This document shows positions 28,023 to 31,000 of a stretch of 64,000 bases of DNA, piece after piece. Location: assembly GCF_053078305.1 (NCBI RefSeq), contig NZ_CP166879.1; one strand, given 5' to 3'. Both the position numbers and the translations under genes were made by a program. The stretch's first letter is position 1. Each line of letters starts with the position of its first letter. The notes below the pieces were generated by a model, which worked only from the letters and a program-made list of their open reading frames with translations, was not told the origin of the DNA and searched no databases.

Positions 28023-31000
28023 TTAGCGAACCTCACGAATATATCCATTCTTTAATAGCCATTCCACATTCACTCGTTCTTGCATATTAGGTAATATTTG
28101 AATCCCCCCTCCAGGCTCACCAAAAGCGGGGGCAATCTTTCCTTGTATAGCAGGCAATGGTTTTATTACCTCATATTCATAGTATTTTTCAGCTTTAGTT
28201 CCTGGCGCTAGAGCTCGTTGTTCGTAAGGAGTACCTTTAGGAGCAAGGAAAGAGCCAGTAGGCTCACCATATCTATCTAGGCGTGTGCCTACCGGAATTA
28301 TAGTTTTGATTGGATCACCTTCAAACCCCAAATTCTTGGGCCAATCCCACCCACCATTAGCATTCTTGAATTTGTCGTAGTAAGAATAGCCTCCGGCTTC
28401 AGCATCTGTAATTGCACTTGAAGAGTTAGGGTTTTTAGATACGCTTTCTTTAACGATACCTTGGCCTAATACACTGATTTTATTAGCTGCCGCAGCACCT
28501 AACACTGGCGTCATTGATGCCGCTACAGTCTTCATCCCGTCATAGGTTTCGACGTAGCTTTCAGCCGTCGCTTTATCCACACCGAACTGCGTCATAGCAT
28601 AGTTTACCATTGCATCTTTCACCTGCTGCTGATTTTGTGCATCAACACTGGTGATATTCAGCAGGTTTACTATCTGCCCGTAAGCATCCGGATACATATC
28701 GCTGACTTGGTTATTGTAGTTTCCGGTTTCATAACCTCCTTTAGCAGCAATAACCCTCAGTCTTTCACCGGCACAAGCCACGCTGGCTGCCTGTCCATTA
28801 CTGCATGCAGCGATTACCGCCTTATCACTGCTGATATCTTTTTCAAGCAATGCATCATATTTCTGCTGCGCCTTTTCGCGCTCTGCCGGATCTTTACTGT
28901 TTTTAAGCGTCTGTTTTGCTATCTCAAGCTCTGTCTTTTCAGACACGCTAAGATAATTATTCTCAACCGAGTTCCTGCCTGCCTGTGCCCCCGTACCGGC
29001 AGCACTTGTACTGTTGCCGGCAAGCCCGCCCGCAATACCCGAGGCAATGGTGGCCAGCATGCTGATTTGCTGACGTTCCTGTTCACTCAGGCTATCGGTA
29101 CGACCACCATAGTAGTTATCAATGATATACCGGGCTGCAAGTTCACCGCTGAATGCCCCTGCAGCACCGGAAGCCGCATTGTTTCCGCCCAGTTGTGCGG
29201 CAAGCGCTCCCCAGACTGCGTGAGCCATCAGGTTTGCTTCCCGGTTATCGCCTGTGGCCTGTTTTATAAGCTGTGCCACTGCCGGATTCAGACCGCCAGC
29301 CAGTACCTGCCCCGGATTCCCTGCATTCAGTCCGCCCAGCACGCCCGTGATGGCCTGTACCACCATCTGCGGCGTACTGCCCGTACCGTAGCCTTTCATG
29401 ACCTCTCTGTATTCCGGGGTCTCCCGCAACTGTGCATCGCTCATGCCAGGATGCTCTTTCCTGGCTGCTTTCATCGCTTCAGTTTCGCCATACGTCATGA
29501 CGATGTTACTCATCTGACCGCTAATCTGGCTGATAACCTGCGCTTCCTGCAGACGCTTCTGCTCTTTCTCCCTGTCAAATATCGGTGCAATGCTGCCGTT
29601 GGCGTTTTCCGGGTCCCGGCTGAGCCCGGCAATATCCTGCTTCTGACTCTCATTATCACGGATAATGAGATTTCCGCCGCTGATGGCGGATGACGTGGTA
29701 CCTTCAGCATGTCCACTGCTGCCGGACATACCGGTAAGTGCGTTCGCCGCACCGGCTATTGCATTTGAGGCCACCATCTGGCTGGCTGACATCCCTGAGC
29801 CACCCGATAAACTGATTCCGGTATGGCTGGCTTTATAGTCTGCCTGGTTATGGATATCCGACCAGCCCAGCGTGTTGGTATTGAGGCTGTTTTTGTCATC
29901 CGTTGCCGTGGACGCAATTACCGCACCATTGAGCTGAGTGTGATTCCCAACAGTGACATCAAACCCGTCTTTTCCGGCGTAGATACCACTCTGTTCCCGG
30001 ACAGAATCGTAATTGCTTTTAATTTTGTCCTGACTGATGCTGGCATAGCCGCTGCCGGACATTGAGCCAAACGTGAAGCTTCCACCTGCAGCCACGCTGT
30101 TCTGTCTGCTGTCGTAACGGTCGCTGTCCTGAAGGCTCGAAATGGTCAGGTTATTCCCCACATCCGCTGTGACTTTCTCACCACTGACCTGAGCCCCCGA
30201 CAGGGTGGTATCATGTCCGCTTGTGAGGGAGACATTTTTACCCGCATCCAGCATGGTTTCGGTCCAGGTCGTGCCGTTGCCTTTCTCCCTGCCCTCTGAA
30301 CCATTGATACCGGCGAAGATACTGAGGCCTCCGCCATTGGTTCCACCACCAAAGCTGACGCCCACGCCGCCACCTTTGCTGCTGTTCTTCCCGGTTGTCT
30401 GTCGGGTGTCAGCGGCGGCAGCCAGCAGAATATCGTTCTGTGCATTCAGGCTGGTGTCATTGCCGGACTTAATCTGGCTCCCGGTAATGAGAATATCGCC
30501 GCTGTTGTTATGGTCCTTATTTTTCCCCGTGGCAGTGACGGAGACATTGTTACCGGCGCTGAGGGTTGAGCCGGAGACGATATCGTGCTGATATTTCGTC
30601 TCAGACTTCGACTGCTGATGGTTGAGCGAAATGCTCACGCCGATACCATTATTCGGGTCAGCACTCTGTTGCTGCAATCCGTGGTTAACACTGGCCTGTA
30701 CACCGGACAGAACCGCCTGTGTTCCTTTCAGTGCCGCCAGACGGCTGTCGCTGGTTTCTTTCGCCTCCCGGGCCATGGTGGCAGCATTATTGATGGCACT
30801 GCCCACCGTGCCGGAAAGGGCAACCGTCAGCCCGCTTTTCTTCTGCTCAAATTTTTCGTCCACAGTACGACGGTCATGCCCCGGGTCAACCACCACACTG
30901 TCACCGGTAATGCTGATATCACGGTTCGCAATCACATCCGAACCGCTGATATGAGCCTGTTTGCCCGCGGTAATACTGACATTACCGGCAGTGGAGCCGA

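Follow-up and report, generated by a model that had tools for sequence, protein, structure and literature searches.

A predicted TNT-family NAD(P)+ glycohydrolase and Imm63 immunity cassette in a class I contact-dependent inhibition locus of Escherichia coli

The toxin domain Ntox40, with the motifs DRxxG, R, and Y, was defined by Zhang et al. (2012) and listed on toxins of the type V, type VI, and type VII secretion systems that carry filamentous-haemagglutinin repeats, with Imm63 among the immunity proteins (PMC3482391); Imm63 has been called the characteristic immunity protein of Ntox40, or TNT (tuberculosis necrotizing toxin) (PMC9503650). A 2024 catalogue of the C-terminal toxin regions (CTs) of E. 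coli CdiA, the effector of contact-dependent inhibition (CDI), contains a type 15 from strain FCH1 that is assigned to TNT (PF14021), NAD glycohydrolase activity, and PtsG entry and is marked 'uncharacterized' (PMC11630599). Among experimentally studied TNT cassettes that act between bacteria, the best precedent is the pair Rhs1CT-1036/RhsI1-1036 of Serratia marcescens, in which an antibacterial pfam14021 toxin hydrolyses NAD+ and NADP+, as followed by high-performance liquid chromatography, and the small product of the gene directly downstream neutralises it (PMC10539506). Here we analysed a stretch of 64,000 nucleotides from contig NZ_CP166879.1 of assembly GCF_053078305.1 (hereafter, the window), which very probably contains an E. 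coli CDI locus of class I (cdiB-cdiA-cdiI) with an exchangeable cassette for a TNT-family NAD(P)+ glycohydrolase and an Imm63 immunity protein. The toxin type is not new, because it is covered by the 2012 Ntox40/Imm63 listing, by the 2024 type 15 entry, and by TNT-related names of RefSeq protein fragments; the finding is a correct re-identification of a type already catalogued as a prediction. By the attributes listed for type 15 (FCH1, WP_029488456.1; PMC11630599 Table 2), in a catalogue that gives no receptor-binding class, the species, TNT annotation, predicted activity, and PtsG entry all agree with the window CT, whereas the window copy sits behind a frameshifted cdiB.

The cdiA gene (28023..37733, minus strand) is an uninterrupted open reading frame (ORF) of 9,711 nt, as seen from the ORF list and its translation, and encodes a filamentous-haemagglutinin-type protein of 3236 aa that an exact-sequence look-up identified as WP_447309352.1. 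The architecture of a CDI effector was found throughout, with a two-partner secretion (TPS) domain (NCBIfam TIGR01901, aa 64-163), filamentous-haemagglutinin (FHA) repeats, a PT-VENN pre-toxin domain, and a variable CT. The Pfam search of the C-terminal 1197 aa returned Fil_haemagg_2 repeats, PT-VENN, DUF6862, and TNT, and in NCBIfam the full-length protein was matched by generic TPS and repeat models only. Most of the first 1350 residues are 92-100% identical to the CdiA of UPEC536. The PT-VENN domain (28947..29096, minus strand; aa 2880-2929) matched Pfam PF04829 with E = 3.7e-17 and contains the VENN motif at aa 2923-2926 (28956..28967), followed by a CT of 310 residues (28026..28955). The original prediction, made from the DNA letters and their translations, had given exactly these positions for the motif and the CT, and every protein string quoted in it was found in the translated CdiA. 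Among the partner genes of a CDI system, a small immunity gene lies directly downstream of cdiA, and the gene upstream is not an intact cdiB.

The last ~120 residues of the CT (28026..28382, minus strand; aa ~3118-3236) form a predicted TNT-family NAD(P)+ glycohydrolase toxin domain, as judged from Pfam, alignment, and structural modelling. They matched the Pfam TNT family (PF14021), the comparison proposed as a check of the original prediction, with E = 4.1e-30 (positions 2-88 of the 88 in the model), a likeness well above any chance level, and the search repeated with the last 1197 residues of CdiA gave E = 3.1e-29. No family was found for the CT in NCBIfam, and its profile searches in NCBIfam and Pfam together matched TNT and no nuclease family. 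Among the sequences of solved structures in the PDB, phmmer matched the domain to the NADases (NAD+ glycohydrolases) of Neurospora, Fusarium, and Aspergillus at E = 4e-17 to 8e-12 and to M. tuberculosis TNT (4QLP) at E = 8e-6. The residues R129, F137, and Q194 of AfNADase, which are the NAD(P)+-binding residues common to AfNADase, TNT (R757/Y765/Q822), and Rhs1CT-1036 (PMC10539506), align with the Arg of LDRYG, the Phe of TGSF, and the Gln of GGGIQ in the window toxin. In full-length CdiA numbering these are Arg3154, Phe3162, and Gln3212, and together with Arg3173 they make up the predicted NAD-site residues. In alignments with 134 and 58 homologues the Gln was invariant, and both Arg residues were 99% conserved. 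A search of 1.84 billion representative proteins yielded 3,245 relatives of the toxin domain at E <= 1e-3; in nearly all of the best 150, the matching segment sits at the C-terminal end of the carrier or close to it, and the carriers include CdiA fragments and Rhs proteins of ~1,500 aa.

The AlphaFold2 model of the toxin domain, built from the 58-sequence alignment, had a mean predicted local distance difference test score of 88.7 and presented the beta-sheet 'palm' fold of the TNT type. When the model was compared with the PDB by Foldseek, the fungal NADases were recovered with TMq 0.73-0.78 and TNT with 0.69, and all 16 matches at E <= 0.001 were NADase chains (8R17, 8R15, 6YGE/F/G, 8PMR/S, 4QLP, 6B12, and 4ZV0). 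Tne2 and Tse6 were matched at E of about 5e-4 to 7e-4 and Rhs1-CT at 1.4e-3; the chain next after the 16 best was 6XTD (E = 1.4e-3), and nothing but NAD+ glycohydrolases scored better than E = 0.5. The fungal enzymes AfNADase (6YGE/F/G), N. crassa NADase (8R17), and F. oxysporum NADase (8R15) are the best matches in both sequence (31-37% identity) and structure, and their Arg/Phe/Gln NAD-site residues are kept in the window toxin. However, the fungal proteins exceed the window toxin in length, with about 190-210 residues resolved; they have additional structure at the N-terminus, and AfNADase also bears a C-terminal calcium-binding motif. They are secreted or surface eukaryotic enzymes without an immunity partner rather than polymorphic-toxin cassettes. 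M. tuberculosis TNT, which is the C-terminal domain of CpnT and the founding member of PF14021, shares the fold and 29% identity, with Arg757, Tyr765, and Gln822 equivalent to the window residues; it is more distant, and macrophages receive it from an outer-membrane channel protein. Rhs1CT-1036 differs from the window toxin in its vehicle, an Rhs protein launched by the type VI secretion system, for which no receptor-binding or entry domain is needed. We call the CT a TNT-type NADase on the basis of the profile match, the NAD-site residues, the predicted fold, and the repeated adjacency of TNT and Imm63 genes described below. Every test available supports the prediction of a TNT-family NAD+ glycohydrolase domain at the end of the CT and of its immunity protein in the adjacent gene, and the TNT-like fold originally proposed from motifs is now backed by Pfam, by matches to solved NADases, and by modelling.

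The original prediction had described the 310 residues as the polymorphic CT, with the TNT-like motifs in the last ~120. The predicted toxin is confined to these last ~120 residues, and residues 1-~170 make up a separate predicted domain for entry into the cytoplasm, as indicated by the match to PDB 6VEK. Numbered from the Val of VENN, CT residues 5-~170 (aa 2927-~3092; 28458..28955, minus strand) were assigned by phmmer and Pfam to a cytoplasm-entry domain of the PtsG-dependent type. CT residues 1-173 matched 6VEK_A with E = 9.9e-94, the entry domain is about 91-92% identical to the CT of 6VEK by our own count, and Pfam DUF6862 matches this part. The 6VEK structure is the CdiA-CT of E. coli 3006, which carries a PtsG-dependent entry domain; the EC3006 domain has to be cut exactly after VENN and depends on the proton gradient, and a disulfide between Cys55 and Cys65 stabilises it (PMC9424206). 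VENN, Tyr5, Cys55, and Cys65 are all kept in the window CT, and its N-terminal domain would therefore appear, by sequence, to be of the PtsG-dependent entry type known from EC3006, NC101, and STEC_O31. The likeness to EC3006 stops at about CT residue 170, and the EC3006 cargo is a BECR-fold nuclease for tRNA(Ile), not an NADase.

The cdiI gene (27611..28021, minus strand) starts 2 nt past the stop codon of cdiA and encodes a protein of 136 aa that is placed in the Imm63 family by its Pfam match (PF15599, E = 2.6e-30, model positions 1-82 of 82), its RefSeq name ('immunity 63 family protein'), and its gene adjacency, so that the ORF originally put forward as a cdiI candidate is confirmed as an immunity-family gene. 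From its family and the conserved gene order, CdiI is predicted to be the immunity protein for the TNT toxin. The NCBIfam search of CdiI found no family, and comparison with PDB chains found no similarity to any solved chain, including the IFT of 4QLP, which is the immunity factor of M. tuberculosis TNT; its structural model is confident, yet has no structural relative in the PDB. No orphan CT/immunity modules were found downstream of cdiI.

The full TNT/Imm63 cassette was present in 20 of 5,426 complete E. coli genomes, and a TNT gene directly followed by an Imm63 gene was observed at seven loci in other genomes (L005, L006, and L008-L012). These include an orphan array in Rosenbergiella (L005), a locus behind a haemagglutinin-repeat gene in Pseudomonas cichorii (L006), and four Serratia loci (L008, L010, L011, and L012), where the PT-VENN/DUF6862/TNT and Imm63 cassette either ends CdiA or sits as an orphan module. 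The full-length Serratia CdiA proteins carrying the cassette are 3,684-3,694 aa long, and the Serratia immunity proteins share a 90%-identity cluster with E. coli CdiI; they lie behind CdiA proteins, not behind Rhs1. A TNT protein of Serratia nevei (P0004) could be placed on no contig. The clustering of the immunity proteins points to recent exchange between genera and indicates that the cassette moves between the CDI systems of different genera, a view supported by the drop in GC content at VENN. In the window (27400..29400), GC content is 0.55-0.59 upstream of VENN, 0.42-0.46 in the CT, and 0.35-0.38 in cdiI, a step as expected for a swapped toxin/immunity cassette. In a related CdiA fragment (P0101), a toxin 90% identical to that of the window stands behind a different entry domain.

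The receptor-binding region of the window CdiA (32742..33608, minus strand; about aa 1376-1664) corresponds to Arg1358-Phe1646 of EC93 CdiA and is of the class I type. It was identical to the published EC93 sequence (Fig. S1 of PMC5371414) at 317 of 322 positions (~98%), and four of the five differences from the printed sequence look like letter transpositions from optical character recognition; the original statement that this central segment differs from EC93 was therefore not upheld. At the DNA level the region shares 98.7% identity with its counterpart in O157:H7 FRIK2533, which PMC5371414 includes in its class I table. Identity was only 26-40% to class II UPEC536 and about 41% to class III STEC_O31 with a conserved flank included, and the specificities for OmpC/OmpF and for Tsx, respectively, were rejected on these grounds. 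From the high identity to EC93 and the low identity to classes II and III, the window CdiA is assigned by sequence to class I, the BamA-binding type. BamA binding has been demonstrated for EC93 fragments comprising residues 1358-1646 (PMC5371414), and the window protein would be expected to bind the same receptor. Close similarity to EC93 extends to the TPS and FHA parts but not to the CT, which in EC93 is an ionophore and has an entry domain of the AcrB-dependent kind. At >= 95% identity, the receptor-binding DNA was found in 188 of the 5,426 complete E. coli genomes. These 188 include CFT073, Nissle 1917, and ATCC 25922, in which the gene is annotated as 'hemagglutinin repeat-containing protein' and not as cdiA.

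Taken together, these modules suggest the following route. CdiB, judging by its family, would export CdiA to the cell surface, where the EC93-type receptor-binding region, given its ~98% identity to the BamA-binding region, would bind BamA on neighbouring E. coli. The CT would then reach the periplasm of the target cell, where it would be cut after VENN, and its N-terminal domain, by its identity to EC3006, would cross the inner membrane by way of the glucose transporter PtsG and the proton gradient. In the cytoplasm, homology, site residues, and the predicted fold suggest that the TNT domain would hydrolyse NAD+ and NADP+ to nicotinamide and ADP-ribose(-phosphate); the loss of NAD(P)+ would cause redox metabolism to collapse and growth to stop. 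In sibling cells, CdiI would bind and block the toxin, as its family and gene adjacency suggest. For the window protein we infer all of these steps, those of receptor, periplasm, and entry from identity to characterised modules and those of NADase activity and immunity from family membership.

The activity of the CT has been named differently in RefSeq, where WP_447309352.1 and its near-identical relatives are called 'contact-dependent inhibition effector tRNA nuclease'. A nuclease activity of the CT has next to no probability. It draws on the product name of WP_447309352.1 and WP_215735908.1 only, and the same name is borne by the CdiA of UPEC536. Table 2 of PMC11630599 gives the UPEC536 toxin as a tRNA anticodon nuclease, and after VENN the UPEC536 CdiA shares 10-33% identity with the window protein. 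The domain content of the CT, which matches TNT and no nuclease family, refutes the nuclease reading, and RefSeq itself applies the name 'glycohydrolase toxin TNT-related protein' to fragments of this CT. Since the CT carries a TNT-type NADase domain, the 'effector tRNA nuclease' name is wrong for the window CdiA and others with the same CT and is misleading. It is also improbable, if considerably less so, that the TNT-fold domain is toxic through other NAD-consuming chemistry, by ADP-ribosylation of protein or nucleic acid or by formation of a cyclic or variant ADP-ribose product. The TNT/Ntox40 fold has been classed with folds resembling ADP-ribosyltransferases (PMC9503650), the weak structural matches of the toxin model reach Tse6, Tne2, and Rhs1-CT, and the acceptor is not fixed by sequence alone. 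Yet the characterised close relatives named in PMC10539506 (AfNADase, TNT, and Rhs1CT-1036) are all NAD(P)+ glycohydrolases, the residues common to these three are kept in the window toxin, and the significant Foldseek matches include no ADP-ribosyltransferase. Hydrolysis of NAD(P)+ thus remains the preferred activity, with several points to be set against the proposal as a whole. Sequence is unable to separate pure hydrolysis from ADP-ribosyl transfer or cyclisation; the immunity assignment is drawn from a family match and gene adjacency; and in the literature searched we found no paper testing a CdiA-delivered TNT toxin, neither enzyme assays nor competition results for a TNT domain borne by any CdiA, and no experiment on Imm63. 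Delivery by the window copy itself is doubtful as well, given the frameshift in cdiB.

The cdiB gene (37746..39513, minus strand), for an outer-membrane exporter of the TpsB type, is split into ORFs of 99 aa and 494 aa by a +1 insertion at codon ~95, where A4 replaces A3 at 39229..39232 (GGAAAATG in the window versus GGAAATG in relatives); a second change, a C/A substitution at 39213, lies 20 nt away. The frameshift aside, the gene is near-identical to the 588-aa ShlB/FhaC-family cdiB of relatives. The original prediction had not mentioned this frameshift. The extra A either reflects a true loss of export in this strain or arose as an error of assembly. It is possible, though the weaker case, that the CDI locus is a decaying, export-dead remnant with a genuine frameshift, no display of toxin, and selection acting on cdiI alone. 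The 99-aa fragment is followed by an ORF without a signal sequence, and the best 30 E. coli genome matches to the cdiB region span 3699-3704 nt against the 3701-nt query and are mostly one base shorter (the best match for the region among complete RefSeq E. coli genomes being 99.5%). Both relatives checked directly have an intact cdiB: STEC17-190, otherwise 99.9% identical to the window over 24 kb, encodes an intact CdiB of 588 aa, and so does the short-read assembly SRR29740787. Moreover, in several other genomes with the cassette cdiA is fragmented into a 'hemagglutinin repeat-containing protein' and a separate 'TNT domain-containing protein'. On the other hand, the 9.7-kb cdiA and cdiI are fully intact in the window, the SRR29740787 assembly with its intact cdiB encodes an identical CdiA protein, and a change of one base within a homopolymer is the kind of error that assemblies typically contain. 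If the change is real, the strain retains immunity and has probably lost toxin display; because of the frameshift the window copy may not export its toxin, which touches the activity of this copy and not the identity of the CT as a TNT-type NADase.

The CDI locus lies within a genomic island of ~46 kb (window ~5500..51321) bounded on one side by tRNA-Thr(CGT) (51246..51321, minus strand), next to proA, and on the other by an integrase-sized ORF (5518..6873, plus strand) that is annotated as a tyrosine recombinase in the closest annotated relative. The EC93 loci, in contrast to this chromosomal one, are plasmid-borne (PMC8190604). Directly upstream of cdiB are a DprA-like gene (40101..41000, plus strand), a gene for a 208-aa hypothetical protein (40997..41623, plus strand), and an ORF of 794 aa (41641..44025, minus strand) that is named in RefSeq 'TOTE conflict system archaeo-eukaryotic primase domain-containing protein'; the genes at 40101..44025 may form a defence module. 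At 15915..19190 (minus strand) and 20406..25237 (plus strand) are the gene for the autotransporter Ag43 and, adjoining it, a pair of genes for a DNA methyltransferase and a DEAD/DEAH helicase that possibly constitute a restriction or defence system. The Ag43 ORF is uninterrupted in the window and is split by an IS66 element in STEC17-190, the closest complete genome.

The finding leaves the current understanding of CDI and of TNT enzymes unchanged. Demonstrations of an NADase delivered by CdiA and of a distinct mode of inhibition by Imm63, a family without a solved structure, would be first demonstrations and not new concepts. Chances are about even that this cassette would give the first demonstration of CdiA delivering an NAD(P)+-depleting toxin, through BamA and then PtsG, with inhibition by Imm63 unlike that by IFT, Tsi6, Tni2, or RhsI1. 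The toxin type is predicted, and its delivery by a type V system is yet uncharacterised; all three delivery modules, namely the BamA-binding region, the PtsG entry domain, and a compact NADase of ~120 residues, are well studied, so that the cassette would offer a convenient model for NADase delivery by CDI. With the window CdiA, a further CDI effector is correctly annotated, one predicted to act by NAD(P)+ starvation of neighbouring cells and not by cutting nucleic acids or depolarising membranes.

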